The notes below the pieces were generated by a model that did not search any database, had not been told where the DNA came from, and saw only the letters and a program-made list of their open reading frames with translations. From an uncultured Planctomycetia bacterium (GTDB taxonomy: Bacteria > Omnitrophota > Gorgyraeia > Duberdicusellales > Duberdicusellaceae), in NCBI GenBank assembly GCA_964634935.1, contig CAZWJT010000002.1, positions 138,643-202,642 on the forward strand: DNA of 64,000 nt. Reading direction: 5' to 3'. The first letter of the stretch is position 1. The number at the start of each line of letters is the position of its first letter. Of this stretch, positions 4,473 to 63,648 are shown piece after piece. The translations under genes and the position numbers were made by a program.

Positions 4473-4473
4473 T

Positions 4474-5679
4474 ATGGCTCTTTTTGAATATATTGCGAAA
4501 AATCAGGAAGGAAAAGTTTTTAAGGGGCGGGTGGATGAACTTTCCAAAAGCAAGGTCATTGATATACTCCACTCAAAGAACCTCGTTATTATTTCGATTA
4601 GCGATGTTAAGAAAAAACTTTTTGATTTTAAGTTTGCCCAGTCGGTAACCCCTGAAGAAATCGTCATTTTTTGCCGGCAGTTGACGACGCTCATTGATAG
4701 TGGAGTTTCATTAGTCCAGTCGGTTGAGATATTAAATGAACAAACAAAAAACCAAAAACTTCGAGAAATATTATCCCGTGTTTTAACCGATGTCCGTGAG
4801 GGAAATGCATTTCACGCATCACTTGCAAAATTTCCCGCAGTATTTTCTTCTTTCGTCCTCAGTATGATAAAAGCTGGAGAGGCATCGGGGAATCTGCCAG
4901 AAATTTTGGACAGGGTAAGCACATATCTTGAAGAATCACTTTCTTTGCAGCGCAAAGTAAAATCCAGTCTTACGTATCCCGCGGTTGTCATTTGTATGGC
5001 GATTGCTATAACTACTTTTTTGATCGTAAAAGTAATCCCGACCTTTAAAGGAATTTTTGATTCTTTGGGCGGAACCTTGCCGCTTCCTACGCAAATGCTG
5101 TTGAGTCTGAGCGATTTTTTAAGCAGATTTATTTTTCTTTTTCTTGGTATTCTGGTCGCAGCCGGAATCGCGTTCAAGCGTTATCTTCGTACGGATCGGG
5201 GAAAAAAACAATTTGATTTTTTAATTTTGAAGTTGCCTATTATCGGCGATTTATTGAGAAAAGTTGCTATTGCTCAGTTCTGCCGGACATTTTCGACTCT
5301 TGTTCGCAGCGGAGTACCCATTTTGAATACACTGGATATTGTGGGAGCAACTTCCGGCAATAAAATTATTGAAGCGGCGGTTCTTACGGCAAAAAAATCA
5401 GTTCAAGAGGGGGAGCCGCTTTCCGAGCCTCTTGCGAGGACAAACATTTTTCCGATCATGGTCACTCGTATGATTGCAATCGGAGAGAAAACAGGAAAGC
5501 TCCAGGAGATGCTTTCGCGAATCGCCGATTTTTACACTGATGAAGTCAATACTGCGGTAGAGGGTTTAACAAGTATTATTGAACCTCTGATTATCGGCAT
5601 CTTGGGTGTTGTTATCGGAGGTATTGTTATTGCACTCTTTTTGCCGATTCTGAAAATTACCGAATTGGTTGGAGCATAA
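4474..5679 (+). CDS. pilC: PilC/GspF-family inner-membrane platform protein (two T2SSF domains)
   Basis: 401 aa. Duplicated T2SSF domain pattern (…GEASGNLPEILDRV… and …IGEKTGKLQEMLSRIADFY…) with three TM segments. Starts 2 nt after the upstream ATPase stop. Confidence 0.85.
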   Translation: MALFEYIAKNQEGKVFKGRVDELSKSKVIDILHSKNLVIISISDVKKKLFDFKFAQSVTPEEIVIFCRQLTTLIDSGVSLVQSVEILNEQTKNQKLREILSRVLTDVREGNAFHASLAKFPAVFSSFVLSMIKAGEASGNLPEILDRVSTYLEESLSLQRKVKSSLTYPAVVICMAIAITTFLIVKVIPTFKGIFDSLGGTLPLPTQMLLSLSDFLSRFIFLFLGILVAAGIAFKRYLRTDRGKKQFDFLILKLPIIGDLLRKVAIAQFCRTFSTLVRSGVPILNTLDIVGATSGNKIIEAAVLTAKKSVQEGEPLSEPLARTNIFPIMVTRMIAIGEKTGKLQEMLSRIADFYTDEVNTAVEGLTSIIEPLIIGILGVVIGGIVIALFLPILKITELVGA

Positions 5680-30745: not shown

Positions 30746-30746
30746 T

Positions 30747-33539
30747 ATGATGAATACAGATTCTATCGTTTTGCGTGGTGCTCGCGAGCACAATTTAAAA
30801 AACATCAACCTGCGATTTCCACGAAATAAACTGATCGTTGTGACCGGGATGTCTGGATCGGGAAAATCTTCGCTTGTTTTTGACACTTTGTATGCCGAGG
30901 GTCAGCGGCGCTATATCGAAAGTCTCTCTGCGTACGCGCGGCAATTCCTTGAACAATATAAAAAACCTGATTTTGACCACATAGAAGGGTTATCTCCTGC
31001 GATTGCAATCGACCAGAGAACCGCTGGAGGTTCACCTCGGTCCGTAGTCGGTACACAAACGGAGATTTACGATTATCTTCGTCTGCTTTTCGCACGCGCA
31101 GGAGAAGTTCATTGTGCCCGTTGTGGTGAGCGGATTACTCAATATTCTCTCGATGAACTCCTCGCCTATGTTTTTGAGAACTTTTCCGGAAAAAAATTGC
31201 GTATTTTATCCCCGGTCATTTGCGGTAAGAAAGGAACTCATTTGCAGATTTTTGAAATGCTCCGCCGAGAAGGATTTTTGCGGGTGTTGGTTAACGGACA
31301 AGAATACGCTCTTGATTCTCTCCCGAAACTTGAACGGTACAAAAACCATACCATTGAGATCATTGTTGATAGAATTCAAGTTGAATCTAAAGATCGTTCA
31401 CGAATTGCTTCTTCGTTGGAACTCGCTGCGCATTACTCGAAGGGGGTGATTGTTTTTGCGGTAGAAGGCACTGCAAAAAAAACCGTATTAAATACAAAGT
31501 TTTTCTGCGTTCACTGCGGCATGGGCATACCGGAATTGGAGCCGAGAATGTTTTCTTTTAATTCACCCTATGGGGCTTGTCCGCTTTGCAAGGGGCTTGG
31601 GATAAAGCTTGAATTTGATCCTGAACGAGTTGTTCCGAATCCCTCCTTGAGTCTTCGAGAGGGAGCTTTAGCTCCATGGAGGAAGGGTTCACGTGGGTAT
31701 ATTATGTATTACCGGAGCATACTTGCTTCTGTGGCCAATAGACTGGGCATTGACCGAGATATTCCTTTTTTTAGACTTTCCCAAAAGATTCGACATACTC
31801 TTTTATACGGAAGCGAATCGCTTGAGGTCTGGGGGAGAAAGTTTGAAGGAGTTATTCCGCATCTAGAGCGTCTCCTGCGTACGACAACCAGCGAATACGT
31901 AAAGGGTGAAATTTCTCATTTTATGTCAACAAAGCCGTGTTCCCTTTGTGAAGGCAAGAGGTTGCGGAAGGAGTCATTGGCAGTTTTTGTCGGAGGAAAA
32001 TCAATCTGGGATATTATGGAGTTGTCCATCGCCGATGCCTCGCGTTTTTTTGAACAACTCCATTTTTTTCCCTATCAAGAAAAAATCGCTGCTCCTATCA
32101 TCAAGGAAATTCAGGCAAAACTGACCTTTTGTTTGTCGCTCGGTTTAGAATATCTCGCGTTGAACCGGCTCAGTTCTACTCTTTCGGGAGGCGAAGCTCA
32201 GCGGATCAAGCTTGCAACGCAGCTTGGTTCGTATTTGTGTGGGGTATTGTATATTCTTGATGAACCTACTGTTGGTCTTCATGCCCGGGATACGAAAAAA
32301 CTCATTGATATTTTATTGATGCTTCGGGATCTCGGGAATACCGTGCTTGTCGTTGAACATGACGCGCAGGTGATTCGTTCGGCCGATTGGATCGTTGATT
32401 TGGGGCCCGGAGCCGGCGAAATGGGAGGAGAGATTATTTTTAGCGATCAGGCCGATCGTTTTACCCAATCCCATTCATTAACTGCGCAGTATATGGTAGG
32501 CACCAAAAGAATCGAGAAACCAGCGAGACGGCGGAGCTATAAAGAAAGAAAACAATTGGTCATTGAGCGGGCTGACGCGAATAACCTTAAAAATATTGAC
32601 GTTAAAATTCCGCTTGGAGTTTTTTGCTGTGTAACTGGAGTTTCCGGTTCTGGAAAGTCAACTTTGGTAGACGATGTTTTGTGTAAAAATATCCGGGCAG
32701 CCCGGACGCATAAGCGCTTTCATGGTTGTTTGCGGTTATTAAATAGCGAATTCATCGACGATCTCGTTATGGTCGATCAGTCGCCGATAGGCAGGACTCC
32801 GCGTTCCAATCCAGCAACGTATACTGGTTTATTTTCATTGATCCGTTCACTCTTTTCTGAGTTGCCGCTTGCCAAATCAAAAGGATTTCAGCCCTCTCGA
32901 TTTAGCTTCAACGTTCGTGGCGGTAGATGTGAGGCATGTTCCGGTGAAGGGATTCGGCAGATTGCGATGCATTTTTTGCCCGATGTTCATGTCCAATGCG
33001 AAGTATGTTCCGGAAAACGTTTTAATTCAGAGACACTCGAAGTGAAATTTAAGGGGTATTCTATCAGTGACATTCTGGATCTTTCAGTTGGAAAAGCCTG
33101 CAAATTATTCGAAAATATTCCACGTATCATGAAAATTCTCCAAACACTTTCTGACGTTGGTCTTGGGTATATTGCTTTGGGTCAAGCCGCCACCACGCTT
33201 TCGGGAGGAGAGGCTCAACGGGTAAAGCTTTCAAAATATCTTCGCGAACGAGCAAGTACTCAAACGTTATATGTCCTTGATGAACCGACCACGGGATTAC
33301 ACTTTGAAGACGTCAGCAAACTTCTGAATATTCTCAATCGCCTCGTTGAGAAAGGCAACACCGTCTTGGTCATTGAACATAATCTTGACGTTATTGCATA
33401 TGCAGACTATATTATAGATCTTGGTCCAGAAGGAGGAGACCGGGGAGGATTTCTCGTTGGCACTGGTTCTCCGGAAGAACTCATGGAGGTGAATGCTTCA
33501 TATACTGGAAAGTTTTTACGTACAAAAGGTGGATTGTAA
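30747..33539 (+). CDS. uvrA: Excinuclease ABC subunit A
   Basis: 930 aa. Two ABC modules ([23 protein letters not shown]…, [13 protein letters not shown]…), ABC signatures [12 protein letters not shown] / [12 protein letters not shown], zinc-finger Cys clusters. Confidence 0.95.
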
Positions 33540-35959: not shown

Positions 35960-36598
35960 ATGATTTCGATTTTGGCAAAAGGGGGCTGGGTAATGTACCC
36001 GATCATTCTTTGTTCGATTTTTGCCCTTGCGATAATTCTTGAGCGTCTTTACTTTTATCATTCTGTAATCCGCCTTAATACGAAAGATTTTTTTACTCGG
36101 ATAGCCGAATATGTCCGCAAATTGAGAATTAAAGAGTCTGTTGATCTTTGTGAAGCGCATCCGACGCCCTTGACAAATGTGCTCAAAGTTGTATTGCTTC
36201 ACTACGATCAACCGAAAGAACTCATTAAAGAAGAAACCGAAGAGGCTTCCTTATACGAAATACCAAAACTCGAGAAAAATTTGCGTGGCCTGGCTACCAT
36301 TGCGCATGTTTCGCCACTCTTGGGGCTTTTAGGGACAGTTACCGGAATGGTAAAGTGTTTTAAAGCTATTGAAAAATCAGCCCAAGAGCTGGGAAGCGTT
36401 AATCCCGCGGTTCTTGCCGGTGGTATCTGGGAAGCGTTAATTACAACGGTTGCGGGCTTAATCGTAGCTATACCCGCATTTATTGCCTACAACTATTTTA
36501 TTAGCAGAGTAAATACATCAATTATACAGATGGAACGTCTCTCGGGAGAACTTTTAGGGCTTGTTTCAGATGCACGGAGTCGGTCAGGTGAGGTTTAA
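35960..36598 (+). CDS. exbB: MotA/TolQ/ExbB-family proton-channel protein
   Basis: 212 aa, three TM helices, conserved …LATIAHVSPLLGLLGTVTGM…AIPA… pattern of the MotA_ExbB family. Confidence 0.8.
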   Translation: MISILAKGGWVMYPIILCSIFALAIILERLYFYHSVIRLNTKDFFTRIAEYVRKLRIKESVDLCEAHPTPLTNVLKVVLLHYDQPKELIKEETEEASLYEIPKLEKNLRGLATIAHVSPLLGLLGTVTGMVKCFKAIEKSAQELGSVNPAVLAGGIWEALITTVAGLIVAIPAFIAYNYFISRVNTSIIQMERLSGELLGLVSDARSRSGEV

Positions 36599-36995
36599 GC
36601 GACACTTAAGTGAAGAATTTGGTTTGCAACAGATCGATATCGCTCCTTTGATCGATATCGTATTTCAGCTTCTTATTTTTTTCATGCTTACCTCTGGTTT
36701 TATTGTTCAACCGGGTATCCGTATTGATTTACCGGCAGCCGTTTCGAGTGAAAACCTGGGTCGTGAACGTTTTACCTTGGTTGTATCATCGGAAGATTTG
36801 TTGTATCTTAATGGAAAGTTTATCACTGATACCGATTTAAAAAAACTTCTTTCTTCGAACAAAACGAGAATTAAATCCGTTTTCATCAAAGGCGACAAAA
36901 AGGCAAGCCTCGGGCGAGTGGTACGGATCTGGGATATTTGTAAATCAGCCGGGATTGAGGCGGTCAATGTTGCGACTGCGAGTGAACAAAATTAG
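36570..36995 (+). CDS. exbD: ExbD/TolR-family biopolymer transport protein
   Basis: IDIAPLIDIVFQLLIFFML single TM followed by a periplasmic domain. Alternative starts are TTG 36561 and GTG 36588. Overlaps the exbB stop. Confidence 0.8.
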   Translation: MHGVGQVRFKRHLSEEFGLQQIDIAPLIDIVFQLLIFFMLTSGFIVQPGIRIDLPAAVSSENLGRERFTLVVSSEDLLYLNGKFITDTDLKKLLSSNKTRIKSVFIKGDKKASLGRVVRIWDICKSAGIEAVNVATASEQN

Positions 36996-37548
36996 TTTTT
37001 TCTGGTTTTTTTTGTTTTCTTTTTTTCTCCACTATCTTTGTGTAAAGAACATTCATCTGAGAGTTTCCTCCTCGCGTAGATTAGCTCGCATTTTTTCTCA
37101 CGGTGCCATTCTTCAGCCGCAAGAACTAAATAAAAAAATGATAAAAAAAAGGGATTTGGGAAGATTAATCCAGCCTTTAACCGGTGAATTTGTTGGGATG
37201 CGTGAGAATTTTTTTCGAGCAAGTCGTTCACTATGGTTTGCCTCAGTAAGCCTAAAAAATAACTGGCATCCCGATCTCGAATTTCTCGAATCTCCATATT
37301 CGGCTAATCCATGTACGCTTTTTATGGGGGATTCCGAAACTCTAAAGATTCCAAAAATAGGGGACGGGTTTACGAAAACTTATGTTATCGAACTGTTTAT
37401 TTCTCCAGCAGGCAATGTCATTTTTTTTAAAAGCAAGAATCATATTCTCGATGTTGAATCGTTCAAACAAATGACAAGTTTTATCCAGAATATATTTTTC
37501 AAACCAACAGGAAAATATTTCTGGACACAGTTACGCGTGATGCTATAA
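36955..37548 (+). CDS. Membrane-anchored hypothetical protein, possibly a divergent TonB-like C-terminal domain protein lacking a Pro-rich spacer
   Basis: N-terminal TM ISFFWFFLFSFFLHYL. C-terminal PKIGDGFTKTYVIELFISPAGNVIFFKS…LDVESFKQMTSFIQNIFFKP loosely follows the TonB_C pattern (…G.V.v.f.v..dG.v…LD.aa..av..w.f.P). Position after exbBD supports the call. Confidence 0.3.
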   Translation: MRRSMLRLRVNKISFFWFFLFSFFLHYLCVKNIHLRVSSSRRLARIFSHGAILQPQELNKKMIKKRDLGRLIQPLTGEFVGMRENFFRASRSLWFASVSLKNNWHPDLEFLESPYSANPCTLFMGDSETLKIPKIGDGFTKTYVIELFISPAGNVIFFKSKNHILDVESFKQMTSFIQNIFFKPTGKYFWTQLRVML

Positions 37549-46733: not shown

Positions 46734-47736
46734 AATCATTTTCTTTTATTTGCGGCTTATCCATTCTTCCCCAAGAAACGTTCTTTCGGCTCTTTTGTGT
46801 TTTTTTCTACGAGCCCTGTCATTTCTCTACGGAATTGTTGTTTTCTTAGTTGATAGACTTTATGCTTACCCTATATTTCAGCATGAAACATCGCTTAAAA
46901 TTGTCAGTATTGGAAATATTACATGGGGAGGCACTGGAAAAACTTCTCTGATACTGCTTTTAGCCAAGATATTGGCGCAAACACAAAGAGTGTGCGTTTT
47001 GACTCAGGGGTATGGGAAAGATGAAGATTTTTTGTTGCGGAAACACCTGAATCCTTTGGGAATCGACGTTTTTTCTCAAAAAGACCGTTTGCGTAAAATC
47101 AAAACCTTGGAAGGAAAATACGATATTGTTTTTCTTGATGACGGGTTCCAGTATAGAAAAGTGAAGCATACCGTCGATATTGTTGTATTGAATGCCGTTG
47201 AGCCGCTCGGAAATGGTTTTTTGATACCGAGGGGACAGTTACGAGAACCGATTACTGCCCTGAAACGCGCTCATATTTTTTTCATCAACCATTCGTTGTC
47301 AAAAAATGATTTATCCGAGCAATTAAAGCCCTATGTGTCTATCAAGCCAATGTTTCAAGGTTACTATGAGGCAGATTTTTTGTACGACCAAAATAACCAG
47401 CGTTATTCTCTTGGTTTTTTATCAGATAAGCCGTTTTTGGCTTTTTGCGCCATTGGTTATCCCGATGGGTTTCAACAAATCCTTGCACGCAATAATCTTC
47501 ATCCAAAGCATTTTCGCGCATTTCCAGACCATGCTCATTTAACTCATGCTGAATTTTTAAAGCTCGAACGTTACTGTTATCAGGAAAAAATACGCTATAT
47601 CGTGATTACTGAAAAGGACGCGTATCGTTTCCGAAACTATAGCACCCGACTTTGTATCTTGGTTTTATCAGTAAGTCTCTTTGTCGATAGAAAAAAGGAG
47701 TTCATCGATGAGTTGGCTCGCTTATTATCTTTGTAA
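46723..47736 (+). CDS. lpxK: Tetraacyldisaccharide 4'-kinase
   Basis: …PIFQHETSLKIVSIGNITWGGTGKTSL… (LpxK P-loop VGNLTVGGTGKTP pattern). The ATG at 46723 overlaps the waaA stop. Confidence 0.8.
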   Translation: MKNKIIFFYLRLIHSSPRNVLSALLCFFLRALSFLYGIVVFLVDRLYAYPIFQHETSLKIVSIGNITWGGTGKTSLILLLAKILAQTQRVCVLTQGYGKDEDFLLRKHLNPLGIDVFSQKDRLRKIKTLEGKYDIVFLDDGFQYRKVKHTVDIVVLNAVEPLGNGFLIPRGQLREPITALKRAHIFFINHSLSKNDLSEQLKPYVSIKPMFQGYYEADFLYDQNNQRYSLGFLSDKPFLAFCAIGYPDGFQQILARNNLHPKHFRAFPDHAHLTHAEFLKLERYCYQEKIRYIVITEKDAYRFRNYSTRLCILVLSVSLFVDRKKEFIDELARLLSL

Positions 47737-49591
47737 GCTATTCAGCATATTTTTTTGTCTTATGCCGCTCAATTCGGCTTTGGCTTTCGGCCGCATAGCC
47801 GGAAACTTCGCTTATGCATTTAGCTCCCATAGGCGTGTTATCGCCCTCAAAAACTTAAAACTTGCGTTTCCCGAGCGATCCGAAAAAGTCTTAGTGCGTC
47901 TTATCCGCAAAATGTTCGAAAATTTCGGTATGGCAACTGTTGAAATTTTACGTATTCCAAAGATCGCCCGCGGCTCTCAAAAGACTCATTTTTCAATTGA
48001 AGGAGAAGAATTTTTCCGTGAGCTTTGTCGCGAGCGAGGAATTGCCCTTGGTATTCATATGGGAAGCTGGGAGCTTCTCAACGGCTTGTTAGTTGAGTAT
48101 TTTCCTTACGCGGTATTAGCCAGAAAACAAAAGATTACGGGACTTGACCGCTTTTTGAATGAGCTACGATTATACCATGGAACTTCGGTTATTTTTGAGA
48201 ACGAACTTCTAAAAATGGCAAAATATCTGCGGGAAGGTTACGTTTTAGGTTTAGTTTTTGATCATGGTGGAAGTGATTCTGATTTGAATGTACCGTTTTT
48301 CGGAAAACGTGTTCCAGTGCCTGCGGGAGCCTTGAGGCTTGCTTATCGGTTTCATAAGAAAATATTTCCATGCGCACTACATCGTAAGAGTCATGGACAT
48401 CATGTATTGCAGGTTGGAGCACCTCTCACGATCGATAGTGAAAATATGTTTTTCGAGTATGCCTTAACGCTTCACCGTATTTTTGAAGGATATATCCGGA
48501 TGCATCCAGAAGAGTATCTCTGGTTCTTCAAGCGCTTTAAAAGAAGCGTTGATACGAAACTTCTTGTTCTTTCTGATGGAAAGGCTGGACATCTAAAGCA
48601 ATCACAGGCAATAGCTGAAATAGTCAAGACAAACTTTGAACGAGTGAGCGTTGAAGAAATCGAAGTTTCTTTGACATACCTGCAAAGATTTTTTCTGAAT
48701 TCTCTGCTCGGTATTCTATATATTCGGCGCAAACGCCAGAGCCGTTTCTTTAAAATAATTCTCGGTAGGCAGTTTGATAGGATTTTTCGGTACGCGGATT
48801 TGGTTGTTTCTACGGGAGGGGCTTTGTCGTCATTAAACAGAATCTTTAGTTGGATGATGGACGCAAAATCAATTAACATTTTTCGTCCAGCAATCGCATC
48901 TCAGACTTTTGACCTTCTTTTTATTCCGCGTCATGATCACCCAGCGAATCTCAAAAATCTAGTCCAGTTTGAGGGAGCTATCGTTTCTCAGGATATCGAC
49001 AATATTGAACGGGGTAAAAAACATCTACTCGAGAGTATACCAAGCTATTCATCCGATCTTCCCGTTCTCGGTATTTTTTTGGGCGGTCCGGTAAAGGGCA
49101 GAGGGTTTTCTCTGGAAATCGAAAAATTGTTCTCGGTTTTTCGGCGTATTCATTTGATGCGTCCAATACAACTTTTTATCAGTACGTCACGCAGAACACC
49201 TTCGTTGTTTGAAGAAAAAATCGAGCAGATGTCCCAAGGTAACCCACTAGTTAAAATTTTCATTTCGTCAGAGAAAAACAATTTTCCATTTGCGAGTGAG
49301 AGCATCATGGCTTTGTCGAGCTTAGTAATTGTTACAGCAGATTCTATTTCCATGCTTACTGAAAGTTGTACGCTTGCTCCAGCAACGATAGCACTCAACG
49401 CTTTCGACAGATTTATGCTTCCTCGAAAACATGGTAGATTTCTGATGGAACTCGAAAAACGGAACCATATCGCATCCGTAACCGTTGATGGATTGTTCGA
49501 TGAATGTGTTTCGGTTCTCTTAAAAAATAAAACGTTTGCGAAACTCGACAACACACAGAATATTATCGAATCATTGAAAACAATCATATGA
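47681..49591 (+). CDS. Fusion protein: LpxL/HtrB-type lipid A late acyltransferase (N-terminal ~290 aa) fused to an ELM1/DUF1022-family domain (C-terminal ~340 aa)
   Basis: N-terminal …LAFGRIAGNFAYAFSSHRRVIALKNLKLAFPE… and the HxxxxD-position region (…HMGSWELLNG…) are typical of the LPLAT/LpxL family. C-terminal LLVLSDGKAGHLKQSQAIAE…VTADSISMLTES matches ELM1/DUF1022 hallmarks (lsdgk.Gh.nQ…, tADSvSMlsEa). A single uninterrupted ORF of 636 aa. Confidence 0.65.
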   Translation: MSIEKRSSSMSWLAYYLCKLFSIFFCLMPLNSALAFGRIAGNFAYAFSSHRRVIALKNLKLAFPERSEKVLVRLIRKMFENFGMATVEILRIPKIARGSQKTHFSIEGEEFFRELCRERGIALGIHMGSWELLNGLLVEYFPYAVLARKQKITGLDRFLNELRLYHGTSVIFENELLKMAKYLREGYVLGLVFDHGGSDSDLNVPFFGKRVPVPAGALRLAYRFHKKIFPCALHRKSHGHHVLQVGAPLTIDSENMFFEYALTLHRIFEGYIRMHPEEYLWFFKRFKRSVDTKLLVLSDGKAGHLKQSQAIAEIVKTNFERVSVEEIEVSLTYLQRFFLNSLLGILYIRRKRQSRFFKIILGRQFDRIFRYADLVVSTGGALSSLNRIFSWMMDAKSINIFRPAIASQTFDLLFIPRHDHPANLKNLVQFEGAIVSQDIDNIERGKKHLLESIPSYSSDLPVLGIFLGGPVKGRGFSLEIEKLFSVFRRIHLMRPIQLFISTSRRTPSLFEEKIEQMSQGNPLVKIFISSEKNNFPFASESIMALSSLVIVTADSISMLTESCTLAPATIALNAFDRFMLPRKHGRFLMELEKRNHIASVTVDGLFDECVSVLLKNKTFAKLDNTQNIIESLKTII

Positions 49592-51660: not shown

Positions 51661-54866
<3,206 letters not shown>

Positions 54867-54886
<20 letters not shown>

Positions 54887-55535
54887 TGCTCGTCCGAGAA
54901 TCACAACTATTGCTTTTGACTTAGGGGGAGTGTTGTTTGATTTTGATTATACAAAAGCCTTGGAGCGTTTCATGCCACACATGGGCGGTAATTCAGCAGA
55001 AGTTCTTTCTGCGATTTTTACTAAAGAATTCTGTTCGCCGTTTGAACGGGGCCAGGAAACTCCCGAAGATTTTTTCAGGAAATTTTCTCAACTTGCGCAG
55101 CTTTCGATTCCATATGCAGATTTTGTTCCTGCCTGGAATAACATTTTTTCTTTAAATCACGGGACGTTGCAACTTATCCGAAATCTAAAAAAGAGCTATC
55201 CCGTTTTTCTTATTTCCAATATTAATATTTTGCACTATGAGTTTTTAACATCGTGCTATCCGGATGTTTTTCACTTATTTAACGCCCAAATTCTTTCTTA
55301 TCGCCATGGTACTATTAAGCCAGAGTCAAAAATTTACCACATCCTCCTTACGGAAGCGCGGGTACTTCCAAATCAAATTGTCTACATAGATGACCGTGGC
55401 GATTTGATTGATGCCGCGCGTAAGTTAGGAATTTCTTCTATTCGCTTCAACGATGTCCATTCCTGTCTTACGGAATTACGACGCCTTGGTGTTTCTGTGA
55501 CGAAAAACAGGCGTTTTTCAGTCCTGGTTGATTGA
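54867..55535 (+). CDS. HAD-superfamily hydrolase
   Basis: ITTIAFDLGGVLFDFDY (motif I with DxG variant), …LISNINI… and …YIDDRGDLIDAA… (motif IV). The ATG at 54867 overlaps the trmD fusion end. The track ORF start at 54747 is an upstream extension. Confidence 0.65.
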
Positions 55536-55574
55536 CTTTTAAAGAAGTCTATGTTATAGTTTAACCAGGATGAT

Positions 55575-56579
55575 ATGAAGGTAAAAATACTTGTATTTAT
55601 TGCTTCTTTCTGGGTATTCCACTTTGGTTTTGCCCTTGATACCATTGATGTTCAGTGGATTGCACCGACCACAATTAGCAATATCAAGATAGTTGAAATT
55701 AAATTTCCGGCATCAACCGTAGAAGATAGGGTAGTCAATTTCTCAATAACGGTACAAAGTACTTCTGCGCAAGAGATCTTCGCAAAGCTAGAGATTGAGT
55801 TTAACAGTGAGGATATTTCTCGCCGAGAAATTATCCTAACAGGTACGAAGAAAATTTCACCCGCAGAAACCGCAATTTTTGTTCTTCCCTGGACAGCAAA
55901 AGAAGGAATGCACCTTTTTTCAACCAGACTCCTCGATTTCGAAGATACGATTCTTGACGAACAGGAAAATCTTAAAATTTCAGTTGCGCAAGGCTCTGCC
56001 ACTACCGACTCCCCGGATAATTCGATAGTCAATGTCCCGTCTCCAGAGTCTGAATCGTTTATTCAGGTTACTGCCGATGAATCACCGGAAAATTATTTTA
56101 CCTCTTCGGATTTTCTCCCAGAGCTTGTGACAAACGAAATGAATAGTCCATACACCGAAGATGCCAATACCTGGATTACGTATCTTGAGTCCGATGGACA
56201 ACGCATCATTTCAAATGATACTCTTCTGTTCGGTCTTTCTGAATATACGGGCAGTCAGCCTACCGGTTTAGGAGAAGATATTCTTGCCTCCTATCTTGGG
56301 AGTGACGGTTTCCCTGCTGGCGGAGGTAATTACGCACGAGCTTTCGACTCGGGTTCATCGCCAATCTCACCCATGTTTTCCAATGACAATGATGGTGATT
56401 TTGATGGCCCTCCGGCCCCTCTCGACGGTGGATTCGGAGACCAAGAACCAGTTGGCGGAGTTCCTGAACCTTCGACATTTTTTGGGATTGCTACCACCTT
56501 GTTTTTTACCTATTTTGCCTACCGGAAAAAGAAAAAAAGTTTTACGACTGCGGTTGACTATGGAAAAAAAACTTCATAG
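55575..56579 (+). CDS. Secreted PEP-CTERM sorting-domain protein (putative exosortase substrate)
   Basis: Signal peptide MKVKILVFIASFWVFHFGFA. C-terminus GGVPEPSTFFGIATTLFFTYFAYRKKKKS (VPEP motif, hydrophobic helix, basic tail). Central acidic S/T/D-rich region. Confidence 0.75.
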   Translation: MKVKILVFIASFWVFHFGFALDTIDVQWIAPTTISNIKIVEIKFPASTVEDRVVNFSITVQSTSAQEIFAKLEIEFNSEDISRREIILTGTKKISPAETAIFVLPWTAKEGMHLFSTRLLDFEDTILDEQENLKISVAQGSATTDSPDNSIVNVPSPESESFIQVTADESPENYFTSSDFLPELVTNEMNSPYTEDANTWITYLESDGQRIISNDTLLFGLSEYTGSQPTGLGEDILASYLGSDGFPAGGGNYARAFDSGSSPISPMFSNDNDGDFDGPPAPLDGGFGDQEPVGGVPEPSTFFGIATTLFFTYFAYRKKKKSFTTAVDYGKKTS

Positions 56580-57219
56580 AGAAAAAAAGATTTATTTTTT
56601 CCTTTTTTCATTTATCTTTGGAATTATCCTTGTTTTTCCTGGAATGCTTCGTGCGCAGTCGAATCCTGAACCTTTTGTGTTAAAAAAGAAAGATTCTCCG
56701 CAATCATCACCCTGGTTTCTTCGCTGGATTCCTGAAAAGAAAAAGAAAACAGGAACTTCCGGCAAAAAAAACATACAACAAACCCAACCAGATCGGCCAT
56801 GCGCTGTGCTGGAACAAGATTTCAGCAGGTGCAAGCAAAATAATTCTCTGCTCAATGACCAACTAGCTACGACTATAAGCGAATTAGAAAATGCAAAGCT
56901 TGAACTTGAACGGCTTCGAAAGAATTTAAAAGCATTACAGAATTTTGTCGTAGCGGCAAATCTACTCACGAAAGAACAAATTGAAGAATTGCAGGATGGG
57001 AACTGGGAACTGACTCTGGAAAAACTCTTACAGACTCAAGGTAAGCCAGAACGCAGTGATTTTCATGAAGTAACCAAAGGGGAATCCCTCTGGAGTATTG
57101 CCCAGAAAGAATACAACAACCCTTATAAGTGGCTCCTTTTGTATCATGCGAACAAAGACCAGATTTATGATGCAGACCTCATCTACCCCGGAATGGTTCT
57201 TATTATCCCTCGATATTAG
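56560..57219 (+). CDS. LysM-domain coiled-coil protein with N-terminal signal/anchor
   Basis: MEKKLHREKKIYFFLFSFIFGIILVFPGMLRA. Coiled-coil segment …LATTISELENAKLELERLRKNLKAL… C-terminal LysM HEVTKGESLWSIAQKEYNNPYKWLLLYHANKDQIYDADLIYPGMVLIIP. The track ORF start at 56284 is an extension overlapping the PEP-CTERM gene. Confidence 0.7.
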   Translation: MEKKLHREKKIYFFLFSFIFGIILVFPGMLRAQSNPEPFVLKKKDSPQSSPWFLRWIPEKKKKTGTSGKKNIQQTQPDRPCAVLEQDFSRCKQNNSLLNDQLATTISELENAKLELERLRKNLKALQNFVVAANLLTKEQIEELQDGNWELTLEKLLQTQGKPERSDFHEVTKGESLWSIAQKEYNNPYKWLLLYHANKDQIYDADLIYPGMVLIIPRY

Positions 57220-57220
57220 C

Positions 57221-58906
57221 ATGTTTAAAAAACATTCCTTCCTCCTTGTTTTCTTGGTTACGAGCATAGTTTCGGTATATGCCGCAATGAGTCGTACTGT
57301 GGACGAGGCTCTTCTCGAAGTTGAAATGGGCAAAAGAGTAGAAGGAATCCTCGACAAACTCATCGGCAGCCAGCGAAGTATCGTTGACGTCAAAGTAACC
57401 TTGAAAGATATGACCGAAAGCGACATTGGAAAGCTGCGTATGCTTCGTCATACGCTCCCTGGCATGGCTACATCACAGATGCAAGACGAAAACGAACAGA
57501 ATGCAACTGATCCAAAAAACCGGTTTAAAGTTCTAGCTCCCCTTATTTCAACAATGAGCGTTACCATTTTAGTAGACGAGAAACTTCCGAAGGAAAAAAT
57601 TACTATAATTGAAAAAGAAATACCGCCGCTTATTGGTTTAAATCTTGCCAAAGGCGACCTATTAACAGTGAAGCCAATCCCTTGGAAAGATGTTCTCACT
57701 GAAGAAATGGCGATTAAACAGGTGGGATTATCCAAAAGTTCTTATTTTGTTCTTGTTTTAATAGCTGTTTTTACTGGTGGAGTTGTTATTTTTTTCTTCA
57801 GCCAATTTTTAGGAAAAAAGCTGAAAAAAATATCAGCGGATCAACTTGATACATTCAGCAGTTATGCGAATAAGATGGATGTCGCTCGAGGTGACCTTAC
57901 AGATTCGCTTCATAAAATGGGTGAAGCATTACAGCAAATGATGCAGTCAGAAAGTGGGGGACATGGCGGAGGCGCACGAGAAATGTCTGATGTTCTTCAA
58001 AAACTTATTGAAACGCAAAAAGAAGTAAGCGATTCAAGTACGGACAGAATCACCGAAGCTCTTATGGAGCTCAAGGACTCACTTGGGGAAGTTGGAGGCG
58101 GCGGTCCAGGCGGAGGCGGAGCAGGAGGGGCAGGAGGTGGAGGATTTGGAGGAGGCGGAGCAGGGGGGACAGGAGGTGGAGGCGGAGAAGGAATTTCAAA
58201 GCTGGCCGCAGAATCACAAGATCCAATGACCAAGGCTTTGGCTATTATGAATTCCTTAAAACCCGAAGAAATTATGCAAATCCTCCAAGATGAAGATGCG
58301 CATATGAAAGCGATTGTTGTGGCTCATTTAAGTCCTGAAAAATCTGCGGAATTTCTCCTTGCGCTTGATGATGAAAATCGGAACACGCTTACGACCGCAA
58401 TAGCTCAAATTCCAGAAGGTGACATTGAAAGTCTTTTAGCATTGAAGGATTTTCTTGATAAAAAAGCAACCGTCATTATGCATCGCAATCTCCTGCCTGG
58501 AAAGGCGGCTCGAGCAATGGCAAAAATGTTGAGCCGTTCATTACCAGAAGTACGCAAGTCTGTTCTTGATAATATTCGGAAACGAACCCCAGAAGTGGCT
58601 GAAGAAATTGAAGATAGTTTGTTTTTATTCGACGATATCAGCAAACTTGATGATCGAACAATAAAAAGCGTTATCGCCAATATTGACCGCAATGTTTTAA
58701 TCAGGGCATTGAAAAAAGCAAGCAGTACCACCAAGGAGAAAATACTGGCGACCTTTACCCCCCGATCTCGGTCTATTCTTGAAGAAGATATCGATGTTCT
58801 TGGCGAAATCCCTTTTCAGGTTTGTCTGCAGGCCCAGAACATTATTCTTGATCGTATTGATATTTTAATTGAAGAGGGAAATTTTGGAACAGCGAGTACA
58901 GGATAA
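57221..58906 (+). CDS. Bitopic membrane protein combining a YscJ/FliF-like periplasmic ring-building motif, a TM helix, a poly-Gly linker and FliG-like middle plus C-terminal (torque-helix) domains
   Basis: 561 aa from the ATG at 57221. Signal/TM1 FLLVFLVTSIVSVYA. Periplasmic EVEMGKRVEGILDKLIGSQRSIVDVKVTLKD (cf. FliF/YscJ LEGELARTIESLxGVxSARVHL). TM2 YFVLVLIAVFTGGVVIFFF. G-rich tract GGGGPGGGGAGGAGGGGFGGGGAGGTGGGGG. FliG-like EIMQILQDEDAHMKAIVVAHLSPEKSAEFL… and LFLFDDISKLDDRTIKSVIANIDRNVLIRALKKASSTTKEKILATFTPRSRSILEEDIDVLGEIP…IILDRIDILIEEG (cf. FliG MFVFEDL…LALKGA…MSQRAADILRDDL…IVRRLAETGE). Confidence 0.6.
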   Translation: MFKKHSFLLVFLVTSIVSVYAAMSRTVDEALLEVEMGKRVEGILDKLIGSQRSIVDVKVTLKDMTESDIGKLRMLRHTLPGMATSQMQDENEQNATDPKNRFKVLAPLISTMSVTILVDEKLPKEKITIIEKEIPPLIGLNLAKGDLLTVKPIPWKDVLTEEMAIKQVGLSKSSYFVLVLIAVFTGGVVIFFFSQFLGKKLKKISADQLDTFSSYANKMDVARGDLTDSLHKMGEALQQMMQSESGGHGGGAREMSDVLQKLIETQKEVSDSSTDRITEALMELKDSLGEVGGGGPGGGGAGGAGGGGFGGGGAGGTGGGGGEGISKLAAESQDPMTKALAIMNSLKPEEIMQILQDEDAHMKAIVVAHLSPEKSAEFLLALDDENRNTLTTAIAQIPEGDIESLLALKDFLDKKATVIMHRNLLPGKAARAMAKMLSRSLPEVRKSVLDNIRKRTPEVAEEIEDSLFLFDDISKLDDRTIKSVIANIDRNVLIRALKKASSTTKEKILATFTPRSRSILEEDIDVLGEIPFQVCLQAQNIILDRIDILIEEGNFGTASTG

Positions 58907-58927: not shown

Positions 58928-59458
58928 TTAGCGATATAAATCTTTTCGAAAGAGGCCTTTTTCTTTCAGTCGAGCTTCTTCTTCAAGAGAAAGAAAAAAA
59001 TCCATGTATTTCGTATTCGGAGCGACAATTGCTGTTTTTGCATACCCATGTTTTACAAGATATGCATTAAGAAAAATCTCGTATTGGTTTGCACCCACTT
59101 GTCGGATTACATCGGTATCACGACTTAAATTTTCGGTAAGTTCCGGAACAATAAGAAATAAGTAAATCAAAGCATGTTTGGAGCGGCTTTCTTGGCGTTC
59201 GTCATATTCAACGCGGAATCCATTTGCCCGTGAAACCATTGATTTTACAAAACTCAGGCATTCGTCAAAATCGGTTGATGAATTTTTTGAAAGCGGAGCG
59301 ATTCCTTCAAGCTGATAAACGGTTTGGGAAGAGCTGATAAAAGTAATGGGGTCGATAAATTTGATGATTGAAAAGGAATCATCGTTTTCAGCTGTTGCGT
59401 GGTATAATACCGGTATGCTAAAAACGACAAAAAAAAGAATATTTTTAGAGATGCGCAT
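58928..59458 (-). CDS. Secreted thermonuclease (SNase)-fold protein, degenerate (no DGDT Ca-site motif)
   Basis: From the ATG at 59458 (complement): MRISKNILFFVVFSIPVLYHA signal peptide. C-terminal …GANQYEIFLNAYLVKHGYAKTAIVAPNTKYMDFFLSLEEEARLKEKGLF resembles the SNase C-terminal block (…N..Lv..G.A.v…..y…f…E..Ar..k.GlW). Confidence 0.4.
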   Translation of the reverse strand: MRISKNILFFVVFSIPVLYHATAENDDSFSIIKFIDPITFISSSQTVYQLEGIAPLSKNSSTDFDECLSFVKSMVSRANGFRVEYDERQESRSKHALIYLFLIVPELTENLSRDTDVIRQVGANQYEIFLNAYLVKHGYAKTAIVAPNTKYMDFFLSLEEEARLKEKGLFRKDLYR

Positions 59459-59559
59459 ATAAGGTACTATAGCATTTGCTTTTATCTCAGTCAATATATG
59501 GCAATCCTTAATTATTCTTTGCGTGCTGGCAAGCACCAGAAAAAATTCTTTTACCGAAT

Positions 59560-61758
59560 ATGGGTATAAAAACCACTTTTGCTCCAAAAATTCTATCACC
59601 TTTGATCATCGGAATCCTAGTCGCCACTTTTTATTGGTTTCTCGAATCACTGATTCATGTATTTGTTTTAACCTCTCAATCGTTCTTTTATGAATTTTTC
59701 TTTCCAGAGCCGCATGAAGCCTGGATGCGCTCAACGGTTGCAATTCTGTTAATCCTTCTTAGTGTTTATCTCCAATCGGCCTTCGAAAAGATGAAATCTT
59801 TGCACAAGTTGCAACTTGAGAAAGAAAAAGCCGAAAATGCTGAAAAAATAAAGAGTGAATTTCTGGCTCATGTCTCACATGAGATCCGCACTCCGATGAA
59901 TTCAGTAATCGGTTTTACTGAGCTATTGCTTGACACGCCGCTCAATGATACTCAAAATGATTATGTACTGACTATCCGTGAAAGCGGAAATCTTTTATTA
60001 ACTCTCGTAAATGATATTCTTGATCTCTCGAAGCTGGAAGCTGGAAAAATCATCCTTGAAAAGATTGATTTCGATCTTGCCTATTTGACTGAAAGCGTCA
60101 TAAAAATGGTAATGCCGCGTTTGCTTGGTAAACCCGTTACGTTGCGTTACGAATTCGATGAAAATATTTCGATGAATTTTAAAGGTGATCCGACCCGCAT
60201 ACGTCAAATACTTCTCAATTTAATTAACAACGCCATAAAATTCACCGAAAAAGGGGAAATAGTAATTTCGATTTTTCCCGACCCAGGGTTTTCGACGAAT
60301 AAAGAACAGACCGTTGCGCACCTGCTGTTGAAAATCAAAGATACTGGAATTGGTATTCCGCATCATGCGCAAATGCATATTTTTGATGCGTTTACCCAGG
60401 CTGAAAGTTCAACGCCTCGTAAGTACGGTGGTTCAGGTCTTGGGTTGTGTATAGCAAAATCCCTCATTGAGCTGATGGGGGGGGCGATTACCTTTTCTTC
60501 AGAAGAAAACAAGGGCACGGAGTTTATTATTTCGCTCCCCCTGGAGCAAAGCGCAAAGCAGACGGACGGATCGATTCTGCTGGTTTCCGATCGACATCTC
60601 CGTGAGAAAAAAATTGGCATTATCGACCCTGATGGATTCTCTCGAAAACTTCTTGAGCAGATGTCCTCGAATGCTGGGCTTGAAGTTATCTTTTCTGTTG
60701 ACTCTTTGAACGCAGCACAGATGAGTTTTCTCAGTAGCCCCTTGCCGGATTTTGTTCTTTGCTCTATACCGGGTGAATCCGATGAACCGCTCGATCATCT
60801 CAAATCTTTCTTTCTTCAGGATCGTTATATCACAATAAAGCGTATTGCAGTGGCTATCCATCCGACCCCAGGCACAGCCCGGAATGCCAAGCAAGCGGGT
60901 TTTCATGGGTTTCTTCCCAAGCCAATACATGAGAACGATTTTATAAAAGTACTCCGCGCTGTTTCCGGTGACCAGCGTATGGATGGACAAATCGTTACCC
61001 GTCATATCGCAGAAGAAATTTCCCTGAACGGCATACCTGTCTTAGTTGCAGACGATAGCGAACTCAATCGAAAACTGATGGAGAAAATCCTCCAGAAATT
61101 CGGTTGTTTGGTTGAAACGGCACAAAATGGAACAGAAGTCATTTCCAAAGTCAAAGAAAAGCATTTTCAAATTATTTTTATGGACATTCAAATGCCTGAA
61201 ATGGATGGATTGGCGGTAACCCGTTTCCTGCGGCATAAATTGTACTATCCGTTTCCAATCATCGGACTGACTGCTTTTGCTTCCGCTGAAGATCAAAAAA
61301 AATGTTTAGAGAGCGGAATGAATGCGTATCTCACAAAACCCATAAACTCTTCAATTCTCCGGGAAAAGATGCTATTTGTGTTATCAGAAAAACAACCTTC
61401 TCAAATCGCAGGGAATCAGAAAGATATCGAAGCATTGCGTGAGCTTGGAGTAACCGATTCTGAATATGAGCAGATGTGCAGGGATGCCGCGCTCGAATTA
61501 TCTGGAAAAATCAATACCCTAAAAAATGCGATCGAGAAGAATGACTCTATGCAAATTCGCAGCACGCTGCATTTTATGGAAGGGATTGCCTTGAATTTCC
61601 GTATGCGCGAAATCACATCCCAGTTGACGGATATTCAAAAATGTATTAAACTGCTACCTGTGGATAATGTTCAGGTGCTCCAAAAGGTCGAAGATTTAAG
61701 GAAATTTTTGGTAACGATTGGCAGTATGGATGAAAAGGAAAAAGGGAGAAGTTCATGA
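59560..61758 (+). CDS. Hybrid sensor histidine kinase (2 TM, HisKA, HATPase_c, receiver, C-terminal Hpt-like domain)
   Basis: His[27 protein letters not shown] boxes …[14 protein letters not shown]…, …DTGIGIP…, …[19 protein letters not shown]… Receiver [18 protein letters not shown]…[14 protein letters not shown]…K. C-terminal …[15 protein letters not shown]… Hpt-like. Confidence 0.8.
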
Positions 61759-63071
61759 GAAAAAAGAGTTTTTTTCTTTTGGTTCTTTCCATGCTCATAA
61801 TTTCGCCAAATCTCCGCGCAGAAATTAAAACAACCTTCGGTTCAGCCATTCGCCTTCGACACGAGTATTTGCGTAACAATACAGATATGAGCCACCAGCG
61901 TTTCGACAATCTAAACTATTTTCGTATAAAAACATCTTTCTGGAGCCAGCTGGAAGTTGACCAAGCATTGAATTTCTTTCTTAAGTTCACAAATGAAAAC
62001 CGACCATACACCTACCGTGGGTCTACCACCGGCAACAAAGACTGGCATTACGACATTCATGAGTTAGCTGTCGATAACTTTTACGGCGAACTACGCAATC
62101 TTTTTGATTCAACAGTCGATATCCGCTTAGGACGACAAGATTTATTGTACGGCGAAGGATTTCTTATTGCCGACGGAACCCCTTCCGATGGATCACGAAC
62201 ATACTATTTCAATGCCCTTACGACGAAATGGCGCTTCAATGAAACGAACACACTGGATCTTTTGTATATTTACAATCCTCGTGACGATCAATTCTTTCCT
62301 GTGCTCAATGAAGATAAATCTCCCCAGGCGCTGAATGTCACCAAAGAAGAGGCCTACGCATTTTATTTAAAAAGCATGTCCTTTAAACCCTTTGATCTCG
62401 AAACGTACTACATTTACAAAAAGGAAGGCGTCGATGGAGGAAAAGGATACCAAGCTGAAAAAGGAATAATCAATACCCTGGGGTCTTTTCTGAAATATAC
62501 CCGTGATTCATGGGTTCTCCGCGGACAGATTGCATCGCAATGGGGAAAGTATGGTCTCAATGACCGCCTGGCCCAGGGAGGATATGTTTTTATCGACAAG
62601 AATTTTCCTCAAAAAACATGGACACCAACGCTCACTGCTGGATACGCTTATCTTTCTGGGGACGATAAAGATACTTCAAAAAATGAGGGATGGGATCCGG
62701 TTTTTTCACGATTTCCGTGGCTCTCTGAACTCTATGGTGCACTCTATACCGCTGAAGCAGGAATTCATAGCTACTGGACAAATCTTCATCTTGCGCGTGC
62801 AAGTCTCACTCTGAAACCAACAGAAAAGATGAAACTATTTCTTGCGTATAATTATCTCTGGGCCGACGAATATCCGTCTCCTAATATGGCACTTTCAATA
62901 ACCGGTACCGGAAAAAACCGCGGGCATCTTCCACAGGTACAGTTAAGCTATTCTTTCACCAAAAACATCTCTGCCTATATTCTCTGCGAATATCTTGCGC
63001 CAGGAAATTTTTATAAAAATAGTGCAGATTCGGCAACATTCCTGCGAACGCAGTTTGAGTTTAAATTTTAA
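61755..63071 (+). CDS. Outer-membrane beta-barrel protein (porin-like), family unassigned
   Basis: Signal peptide [22 protein letters not shown]. Alternating amphipathic beta-strand pattern with many Y/W/F girdle residues. C-terminal FEFKF (terminal Phe OMP signature). 438 aa. Confidence 0.6.
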
Positions 63072-63120
63072 CCGGATCTTTTGCTATATAGTTTTAAAAT
63101 GGCACAACGAATGGAAACGA

Positions 63121-63648
63121 ATGTCGATACTTAAAATTCTTATCGCCGATGATTCGGCCGTGACGCGGAAATTAATCGGGAAAATGATTTCTGAAACCCG
63201 CTTTAAAAAAACTCAAATTTTTGAAGCGGCAAATGGAACGGACGCAATAAAAATTCTTGCCGAACAAAATATTGATCTGCTTCTGACCGACTGGATGATG
63301 CCGGGAGTAGACGGCATAGAAATGATTCAGAAAATCAAGGCATCTCCAAAACACAAAAATCTGGAAATCATAATGATTACGAAAGAAAAAACTGTCGAGA
63401 AAATGGAGAGCGCTTTGGCCTTGGGTATCACAAATTTTATCGGAAAGCCATTCACGGTTGCTGAACTCGACCGAAAAATATTTTATACTTCCGCGGGCCG
63501 TAAATATTACAGCTGGGGGTATTCTTTTGAACGTCTTCGTCGCAGGATATTTTGCCGAAATGAAATAAACCTTGTCCAGCAATTCAAAGAACCTGATACC
63601 GAGGAATTTGAGCAATCAGCAAAGAAGGAAAAAGAACAGTCACGCTAA
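63121..63648 (+). CDS. CheY-like single-domain response regulator with ~50-aa C-terminal tail
   Basis: MSILKILIADDSAVTRKLI…LLLTDWMMPGVDGIEM…ITKE…K receiver motifs (DD, D-phospho-acceptor, T, K). The ATG at 63121 is the likely start; the track ORF from 62995 is an upstream extension. Confidence 0.75.
   Translation: MSILKILIADDSAVTRKLIGKMISETRFKKTQIFEAANGTDAIKILAEQNIDLLLTDWMMPGVDGIEMIQKIKASPKHKNLEIIMITKEKTVEKMESALALGITNFIGKPFTVAELDRKIFYTSAGRKYYSWGYSFERLRRRIFCRNEINLVQQFKEPDTEEFEQSAKKEKEQSR

Follow-up and report, generated by a model that had tools for sequence, protein, structure and literature searches.

The window analysed here, a 64,000-nucleotide stretch of contig CAZWJT010000002.1 from an uncultured bacterium of the GTDB lineage Omnitrophota, encodes a single protein of 561 amino acids (aa) in which the S-ring domain of FliF (ring-building motif 3, RBM3), a transmembrane (TM) helix and a linker are followed by the middle and C-terminal domains of FliG (FliG_M and FliG_C). 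We think it probable that this fusion is the rotor subunit of a rotor-stator machine that derives from the flagellum, neither switches nor secretes, and is not itself a flagellum. The evidence comes from the domains of the protein, from the FliG residues that its family has kept and lost, and from the stator genes that accompany it in relatives. An earlier note on this DNA had read the gene as a single chain of FliF-like topology, with a ring-building domain, a TM helix and FliG middle and C-terminal regions, next to a gene for a LysM coiled-coil protein. Both open reading frames (ORFs) are present where the note placed them, and the architecture is borne out by Pfam, by alignment with Thermotoga maritima FliG (PDB 1lkv) and by a profile of the family. 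The gene and its parts are as follows.

57221..58906, plus strand: the 561-aa FliF(RBM3)-TM-linker-FliG(M+C) fusion, the proposed rotor subunit
57221..57292, plus strand: predicted signal peptide, aa 1-24 (MFKKHSFLLVFLVTSIVSVYA, with AM following the putative cleavage site), read from the sequence
57293..57694, plus strand: periplasmic FliF RBM3 (S-ring) domain, aa 25-158, from the family profile, Pfam and an AlphaFold model
57740..57814, plus strand: TM helix, aa 174-198, then KK (positive-inside), from the sequence, the alignment and a long modelled helix at 160-204
57815..58222, plus strand: cytoplasmic linker, aa 199-334, with helical segments and a Gly-rich stretch; predicted local distance difference test (pLDDT) of the model <50
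58094-58192, plus strand: poly-Gly/Gly-rich stretch, aa 292-324, conserved in the relative P0002
58223..58495, plus strand: FliG middle domain, aa 335-425; Pfam FliG_M (PF14841) at aa 348-418, E=2.6e-10
58496..58885, plus strand: FliG C-terminal domain, aa 426-555; Pfam FliG_C (PF01706) at aa 450-554, E=1.3e-23
58619-58639, plus strand: LFLFDDI hinge (MFxF-like), aa 467-473, within FliG_C
58757-58804, plus strand: torque helix TPRSRSILEEDIDVLG, aa 513-528, within FliG_C

The C-terminal half aligns with T. maritima FliG over aa 339-555 (E=3e-22), and its FliG_M match scores 40.8 bits against a cut-off of 25. The hinge and the torque-helix charges are as the note described them: K498, R515, E522 and D523 are the equivalents of Escherichia coli FliG K264, R281, D288 and D289, and the position of R297 is taken by P531. 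The motif through which FliG binds FliM, EHPQR, is degenerate (EDAH...A). No FliG_N was found, the only match being one of 18.5 bits (cut-off 25) that overlaps FliG_M. The note had asked whether the region might belong to MgtE_N or another non-FliG fold; this did not prove to be the case, as MgtE_N (PF03448) reaches 23.3 bits against a cut-off of 25.9 (E=9.5e-5) and overlaps a much stronger FliG_M match, and the torque-helix charges are conserved in the family.

The N-terminal domain is FliF RBM3. We make this assignment because 11 of 12 family members match Pfam YscJ_FliF_C (PF08345; best E=7e-9), because a profile of the family N-termini retrieves Salmonella FliF from the PDB (E=9e-4) over residues 240-281 and 338-439, the two RBM3 halves that flank the beta-collar, because the AlphaFold model has the corresponding topology, and because a hidden Markov model (HMM) built from the fused-family N-termini alone detects canonical FliF of ~510 aa beside a separate fliG in ~45 unrelated metagenome loci. 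In the model the core has a pLDDT of ~80-87 and the alpha-beta-beta-alpha-beta order (alpha 27-48, beta 53-62, insert 63-107, beta 108-119, alpha 124-138, beta 147-153), with a long TM helix after it. Residues R39, G49, V55, I109, D119, G145 and D146 are invariant across the family. The whole periplasmic part spans only ~134 residues; where FliF carries a collar insertion of ~110 residues, the window protein has an insert of only ~45 with a pLDDT <50. PF01514, which covers RBM1 and RBM2, the SctJ-homology region that houses the export gate, matches neither the window protein nor any family N-terminus. The note had compared this domain with both YscJ and FliF, and it is the FliF comparison, to RBM3 specifically, that stands. 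An injectisome SctJ/YscJ identity was rejected because the protein lacks both a PF01514 domain and a lipobox and its fold is closest to FliF RBM3.

The hydrophobic N-terminus resembles a cleavable signal peptide (predicted to be cut between VYA and AM), and the family alignment places Ala-x-Ala/Gln-type cleavage sites at the matching position in relatives. Because this segment is signal-peptide-like and the TM helix is followed by KK, the predicted topology is N-out, C-in, in line with the note. FliF itself has two TM helices and both termini in the cytoplasm; of these helices the C-terminal one is present here, and the N-terminal hydrophobic segment is, by its sequence, signal-peptide-like. 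The linker occupies the place of the FliF C-terminus and FliG_N; it is rich in Gly/Ala throughout the family and differs in length from member to member. The protein is a chimera of defined FliG and FliF sub-domains and a full member of neither family: it is not a complete FliG, because it lacks FliG_N and EHPQR and scores 104 bits, over model positions 109-326 only, where the full-length FliG equivalog TIGR00207 requires 226.7, and it is not a complete FliF, because it lacks RBM1/2 and has a shortened collar.

Relatives were found by an exhaustive HMMER search of 1.84 billion representative proteins. It returned collinear proteins of 500-700 aa (P0002-P0010; E 1e-174 to 1e-37, 29-56% identity), below which came ordinary FliG at E 1e-23 or weaker. 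A signal peptide, RBM3, a TM helix, the variable linker and FliG_M plus FliG_C are common to all aligned members. A pattern search with a four-sequence N-terminal alignment yielded three loci, and with custom HMMs we scored the context of 14 distinct family loci with downstream sequence; one more contig ends within the fusion gene. The note had proposed to trace how the fused architecture is distributed: it is a small conserved family found mostly in metagenome-assembled genomes (MAGs) labelled Omnitrophota (the source labels of P0004, P0010 and L012 read 'Candidatus Omnitrophota/Omnitrophica bacterium'), with a more divergent version in Elusimicrobiota. In four members (P0004, P0005, P0006 and P0009; loci L007, L005 and L008) a second FliG_C-like repeat precedes the C-terminal FliG_C. 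A MAG with a Planctomycetia label (L013, 9911-11898) has two ORFs in place of one fusion gene, the first for RBM3 (181 aa) and the second for FliG (459 aa), as a result of either a frameshift or an assembly error.

Directly 3' of the fusion gene, 12 of the 14 loci (L005, L007, L008, L010, L011, L013, L015, L016, L017, L018, L019 and L041) carry flbD-motA-motB-motB, with an flbD of 63-66 aa, a motA of 247-258 aa and then two motB-like genes. The only loci without an adjacent stator are the window and its closest relative, L002, so that the word 'orphan', which the note had applied to the gene, holds for the window lineage and fails for its relatives. The ~10 kb to each side of the fusion gene contain no other flagellar gene in any of the family loci, and the canonical fliF-fliG loci recovered in the same scan are ordinary flagellar clusters. 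On the other side of the gene, a LysM homologue stands immediately 5' in 11 of 12 distinct loci, which answers positively the question of co-conservation that the note had raised; the LysM part remains 60-67% identical even where the fusion proteins are only ~30% identical.

Judged by their sequences, the stator genes of the relatives are of flagellar type. Their MotA matches flagellar MotA in the PDB with E=1e-41 and the NCBIfam MotP, PomA and MotA models at 1e-57 to 1e-43; their MotB proteins match MotS, MotD and MotB models at 1e-24 to 1e-34; and FlbD scores 7e-27. There is one motA but there are two motB paralogues per operon (L005 12902-14442; L007 12995-14558; L008 12528-14150; L011 3567-5167), both of which retain the plug/TM region, the channel Asp and the OmpA-like domain. 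This suggests either a heterodimeric B subunit or two alternative stators. Zorya and other defence systems were considered and rejected, since PADLOC gave no match for the fusion, LysM, FlbD or MotA proteins. For the MotB proteins it returned only generic ZorB (MotB-like) matches, weaker than those to flagellar MotB models.

We compared 14 fused-family FliG regions with 73 canonical FliG proteins from metagenome fliF-fliG loci in one HMM alignment, with the following counts.

K264 equivalent (torque helix): fused 12/14 K; canonical 73/73 R or K
R281 equivalent: fused 13/14; canonical 71/73
D288 equivalent (acidic): fused 14/14; canonical 73/73
D289 equivalent (acidic): fused 14/14; canonical 73/73
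MFxF-ED hinge: fused 14/14; canonical 73/73
Q128 (FliM-binding EHPQR): fused 1/14; canonical 73/73
R160 (EHPQR): fused 0/14; canonical 73/73
P127 (EHPQR): fused 3/14; canonical 67/73
R297 equivalent: fused 0/14; canonical 73/73 R or K
First Gly of the Gly-Gly linker: fused 0/14; canonical 72/73

As far as residues can tell, this pattern is the one expected of a rotor that still meets the MotA pentamer and no longer meets FliM. On the stator side, the MotA proteins of eleven loci (L005, L007, L008, L010, L011, L013, L015, L016, L017, L019 and L041) keep the R90 equivalent in 11/11 members, whereas the E98 equivalent is K/R in 10/11 and is followed by an acidic residue; the canonical MotA proteins of this data set have D/E at the E98 position in 8/8. 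This change in MotA parallels the loss of the R297 equivalent in FliG, and the rotor-stator interface is thus conserved yet remodelled on both sides.

The counts also speak to whether the gene is an evolutionary relic, a remnant of a vanished flagellum that no longer has a function and is on its way to being lost. Isolation from stator and flagellar genes in the window, the reduced domain set and the split gene of L013 would fit such a history, but ORFs are intact in ~14 lineages that have diverged to 26-56% identity, the order of the LysM gene, the fusion gene and the stator set is conserved, and functional residues including those of the torque helix are kept while the FliM-binding motif has been lost selectively. 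Moreover, between the window protein and P0002 the two FliG domains are each 65% identical, compared with 54% for RBM3, 48% for the linker and 39% for the TM region; that the FliG domains are the best conserved points to continued selection in a lineage with no adjacent stator. We find a relic hardly credible. The note had offered it beside a second reading, a rotor-like module of an undescribed envelope machine, and it is the latter that the conserved family and its stator operons favour.

A divergent but genuine flagellar rotor is a different matter, since here the other flagellar genes would lie elsewhere in the genome and the fusion would be either an MS-ring/C-ring component or a second, specialised rotor paralogue. 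Every domain of the protein is indeed of flagellar origin, the gene census was confined to the window, and joining the two proteins need not disable them: engineered full-length FliF-FliG fusions work in Salmonella, as cited in PMC4768692, and assemble rings in Vibrio (PMC10941966, PMC11481574), and natural full-length FliF-FliG fusions (P0016, P0072) occur among database proteins. The domain make-up, however, speaks against it. RBM1 and RBM2, the cradle of the export gate, are absent; the rod-holding beta-collar is cut to a 45-residue insert of low model confidence; FliG_N is missing, and the FliM-binding motif is lost across all 14 members. No fliE, fliH, fliI, flhA, flg or similar gene was found in any family locus. 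From the literature, aflagellate Elusimicrobiota have been reported with fliG, flbD and motAB (10.1101/2022.07.08.499144), and the main text of a study of 421 Omnitrophota genomes never mentions flagella (PMC10066038). We strongly doubt that the protein serves a flagellum. The Elusimicrobiota and Omnitrophota literature favours a non-flagellar setting, short of proof for the window genome.

The window itself bears out the note's statement that no other flagellar genes are present in the 64 kb. A Pfam search of all ORFs of at least 150 aa found none, custom HMMs run on ORFs of at least 50 aa found no FlbD, MotA or MotB, and export apparatus, rod, hook, filament and C-ring genes are all missing from the 64 kb. 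The note had pointed to a MotA/ExbB-ExbD pair 20 kb away as a possible partner. That pair, at 35960-36995, was rejected as a stator, being TolQ/TolR-like (tolQ 6.5e-30 versus MotA1 7e-4). It looks like a housekeeping Tol/Ton system, and at 35960-37548 the TolQ-like and TolR/ExbD-like genes and a gene for a 197-aa protein without family match come directly after a gene for a 798-aa TPR/YfiO-like protein. A stator for the window lineage would be encoded elsewhere in the genome.

The partner that the window does retain is the 219-aa LysM protein, which has a hydrophobic N-terminus, then a heptad-rich stretch and then the LysM domain. A single nucleotide lies between its stop codon (57217-57219) and the fusion ATG, and the two genes are predicted to be translationally coupled, within a putative shared operon. 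The ATG at 57221 is backed by alignment with the 56%-identical P0002; the database gene model starts 18 codons further upstream, within the LysM gene.

From these parts we propose the following mechanism. RBM3 domains would oligomerise into an S-ring-like periplasmic ring, each subunit of which would hang one FliG_MC unit below the membrane, the covalent fusion fixing FliF:FliG at 1:1, the ratio of real motors. Peptidoglycan-anchored units of MotA5B2 type, with FlbD, would drive rotation of the ring by pushing against the torque helix. Without a C-ring there would be no CheY-controlled switching, and without RBM1/2 and an export gate there would be no type III secretion, rod or filament. Mechanical output would pass instead through the periplasmic face, that is, the RBM3 ring and its LysM coiled-coil partner, and would probably be directed at an envelope glycan of the N-acetylglucosamine (GlcNAc) type, either peptidoglycan or exopolysaccharide. 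We suggest such a target because LysM binds such polymers and because the relatives' operons lie among genes for polysaccharide synthesis (priming transferase, Wzy, flippase, Wza/Wzz), polysaccharide deacetylase, GH123 and metallophosphoesterase proteins, with exosortase EpsH/EpsI genes also near the operon in L008. This output, through the periplasmic ring and the LysM protein onto a glycan, is the weakest step of the mechanism. In the window lineage only the LysM-rotor pair is left at the locus.

Several points weigh against this proposal. Ring formation, rotation and output are all steps that we infer. The window protein's own RBM3 score is under the Pfam gathering cut-off (PF08345, E=0.028 at full length; 19.7 bits for the isolated domain, cut-off 23.8), and the structure models, built from only 12 sequences, reach mean pLDDT values of 63.5 and 70.9, a moderate confidence. 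There is no stator gene in the 64 kb of the window nor on the 8-kb contig of L002, and rotation in the window lineage is an extrapolation. The flagellar-gene census of the source genome covers the 64-kb window. The link to polysaccharide is one of synteny alone, and is not seen in the window save for a weak PEP-CTERM-like neighbour. Finally, a LysM partner that anchored the ring to peptidoglycan would block rotation and so favour a static role.

Such a static role can be stated as an explanation of its own: the LysM protein would fasten an RBM3 ring to peptidoglycan, giving an envelope scaffold or signalling platform that does not rotate, at least in the window lineage, and its FliG-like domains would be a docking or regulatory surface, as FliG is for EpsE or YcgR-type partners, or would act like MgtE_N domains. 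LysM domains normally immobilise proteins on peptidoglycan, the stator is absent from the 64 kb, and the weak MgtE_N match would be accounted for. Regulatory genes are also close by, with a hybrid histidine kinase and response regulators conserved downstream in the window and L002, and a kinase and a GGDEF regulator adjoining the operon in L007. Yet a dedicated stator set stands immediately downstream in nearly all family loci, the MgtE_N score is not only below its cut-off but far under the FliG_M and FliG_C scores, and it is the stator-contact charges that have been kept and the partner-binding EHPQR surface that has been lost. We regard a static scaffold as rather unlikely.

Compared with the flagellar rotor core (FliF MS-ring and FliG of Salmonella and Vibrio; PDB 6scn, 8z5v, 8umd), the fusion shares FliG_M and FliG_C, the MFxF hinge and four of the five torque-helix charges, and its relatives share FlbD, MotA and MotB partners of flagellar type. 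It differs in being one polypeptide rather than two, with no RBM1/RBM2, a collar of ~45 residues and a putative signal peptide in place of the first TM helix; in lacking FliG_N, EHPQR and an R297 equivalent, as well as export, C-ring, rod, hook and filament genes nearby; and in the addition of a LysM coiled-coil partner and, in relatives, of two MotB paralogues. The note had contrasted the single chain with flagella, in which FliF and FliG are separate proteins; the contrast needs qualifying, since a natural fusion is on record in the Chlamydiaceae. In this CT719-type protein, the closest documented precedent, a truncated FliF continues into FliG sequence, and its hosts are considered non-flagellated (Bergeron 2016, PMC4768692). 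It has ~330 aa, two TM helices, an SctJ-like RBM2, one unassigned RBM and a FliG_M-like region only, comes with no MotAB, and has been proposed to act with the injectisome (PMC4768692). The window protein, compared here with the published description, differs in having RBM3 only, both FliG_M and FliG_C, 561 aa and, in relatives, MotAB.

Engineered fusions in Salmonella and Vibrio show that covalent joining is compatible with ring assembly (PMC10941966, PMC11481574, PDB 8z4d), and Salmonella fusion mutants are cited in PMC4768692 as compatible with motility. Those constructs are full-length proteins in a complete flagellum, whereas the window fusion is natural and heavily reduced. Other natural or apparent flagellar fusions among the database proteins P0016, P0072, P0019, P0082, P0103 and P0046 join FliF to FliG (787 and 869 aa), FliM to FliG (589-996 aa) and FliN to FliG (668 aa); they are putative, and may be artefacts of gene calling.

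A similar gene content is on record for Elusimicrobiota without flagellar structural genes, which carry motAB, flbD and fliG homologues whose role was called 'enigmatic' (10.1101/2022.07.08.499144). The gene combination is alike, but that preprint lists annotations only and describes neither a FliF fusion nor a partner protein. One protein with an Elusimicrobiota label, P0055 (MFA5858462.1), is collinear with the window protein, being 27% identical over the second half of RBM3 and the TM helix and 26% over FliG_MC. Downstream of its gene, in a housekeeping context, come two unknown genes and then genes for MotA and for a MotB with TPR repeats. It is much more divergent than the other relatives: the acidic pair of the torque helix is not kept, and LysM and FlbD neighbours are absent.

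The flagellum is, to our knowledge, the only setting in which FliG and MotAB are known to work as a pair. Non-flagellar 5:2 ion-driven motors (ExbBD/TolQR, GldLM, AglRQS and ZorAB) use a MotA/MotB-family unit to turn ion flow into envelope work other than swimming. None of them has a FliG or FliF rotor, and the stator of the relatives described here is of the MotA/MotB/FlbD type, not the Exb/Tol/Zor type. A literature search, in which coverage of subscription journals was limited, returned no description of the fusion architecture, the LysM partner or the operon; all it yielded on the subject were the chlamydial fusion, the engineered fusions and the remark on Elusimicrobiota. A FliF-FliG fusion as such is already known; what seems to be new is the reduced form of this naturally fused FliF-FliG rotor and, in relatives, the stator operon dedicated to it.

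A broader proposal, which we advance tentatively and with a little less than even confidence, is that Omnitrophota and Elusimicrobiota possess a free-standing ion-driven rotary machine composed of a fused FliF-RBM3/FliG ring rotor, an FlbD-MotA plus MotB1/MotB2 stator and a LysM coiled-coil output onto envelope glycans, serving for example exopolysaccharide handling or extrusion, or surface movement. Such a machine could be a flagellar motor that has been radically reduced, or else a living relative of a rotor-stator core that predates the secreting flagellum. If this is true, the torque-generating core can exist and be selected by itself, without a secretion apparatus, a switch complex or axial structures, which bears on the evolutionary assembly of the flagellar motor and on the separability of rotation from secretion, and the 5:2 ion-driven motors would gain a new class of output. 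A naturally minimal one-protein rotor with fixed 1:1 stoichiometry would also be of use in structural and synthetic work, and may help to explain the surface behaviour of uncultured phyla such as Omnitrophota and Elusimicrobiota. In the meantime, the current labels of these proteins, 'FliG C-terminal domain-containing protein' and 'flagellar motor switch protein FliG', can falsely imply flagellar motility.

The neighbours of the fusion gene in the window are these.

55532..55560, plus strand: sigma-70-like promoter candidate (TTGACT, 17-nt spacer, TG-TATAGT), just 5' of the first gene of a putative three-gene operon
55575..56579, plus strand: 334-aa secreted protein with a PEP-CTERM-like C-terminus (VPEPSTFF...YRKKKK); Pfam PEP-CTERM E=0.035, below cut-off
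56560..57219, plus strand: 219-aa LysM partner, with an N-terminal signal/anchor segment, a coiled coil and a C-terminal LysM domain at aa 169-217; Pfam LysM E=1.4e-6, NCBIfam PRK11198 2e-14
58928..59494, minus strand: 188-aa secreted SNase-like protein, where relatives carry flbD-motA-motB-motB

The promoter candidate has 10/12 matches and an extended -10 element; sigma-70-like sites in the region are as frequent as expected by chance, and it is position alone that favours this one. The gene of the 334-aa protein overlaps the start of the LysM gene by 20 nt and is not kept beside the fusion gene in other family loci, and the case for its belonging to the module is weak. Beyond L002, the closest relative (41% identity), the SNase-like protein is not conserved.

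The two lineages that lack an adjacent stator share, downstream of the LysM-rotor pair, a hybrid histidine kinase-receiver and then a single-domain response regulator (window 59560-63648; L002 2817-5477), with an alginate-export-type porin between the two in the window. These proteins may be regulators of the pair. In other relatives the operons are flanked by secreted proteins of ~490 and ~350 aa without Pfam match (L005 14794-16266; L008 5853-8393; L010 3179-5889; L011 5170-7784; L015 16281-18885; L016 5365-9503). They share a repeated domain with the motif FFHL..NADF.P..PT..W..GE.V..GP...IP...PGEY.I..GL, also present in neighbouring GH123 proteins, which may be a glycan-binding module.

Elsewhere in the window, a TrmD (tRNA m1G37 methyltransferase, E=1.8e-61) at 53888-54886 has a C-terminal extension of ~90 aa that matches the MazG NTP-pyrophosphohydrolase domain with 21.8 bits, just below the cut-off of 22. 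At 47681-49591, inside a lipopolysaccharide gene block with LpxK, Kdo transferase and heptosyl/glycosyl transferases, a 636-aa protein fuses Lip_A_acyltrans (lipid A acyltransferase) to a Mito_fiss_Elm1-like domain. Two tandem T2SSE/PilB-type ATPases, each with an MshEN domain, are encoded at 1087-5679, followed by a T2SSF platform protein and then a 1031-aa TPR protein. The AT skew of the window is unusually strong in two places, at +0.237 in 6001-8000, within the gene of this TPR protein, and at -0.215 in 30001-32000, within uvrA.

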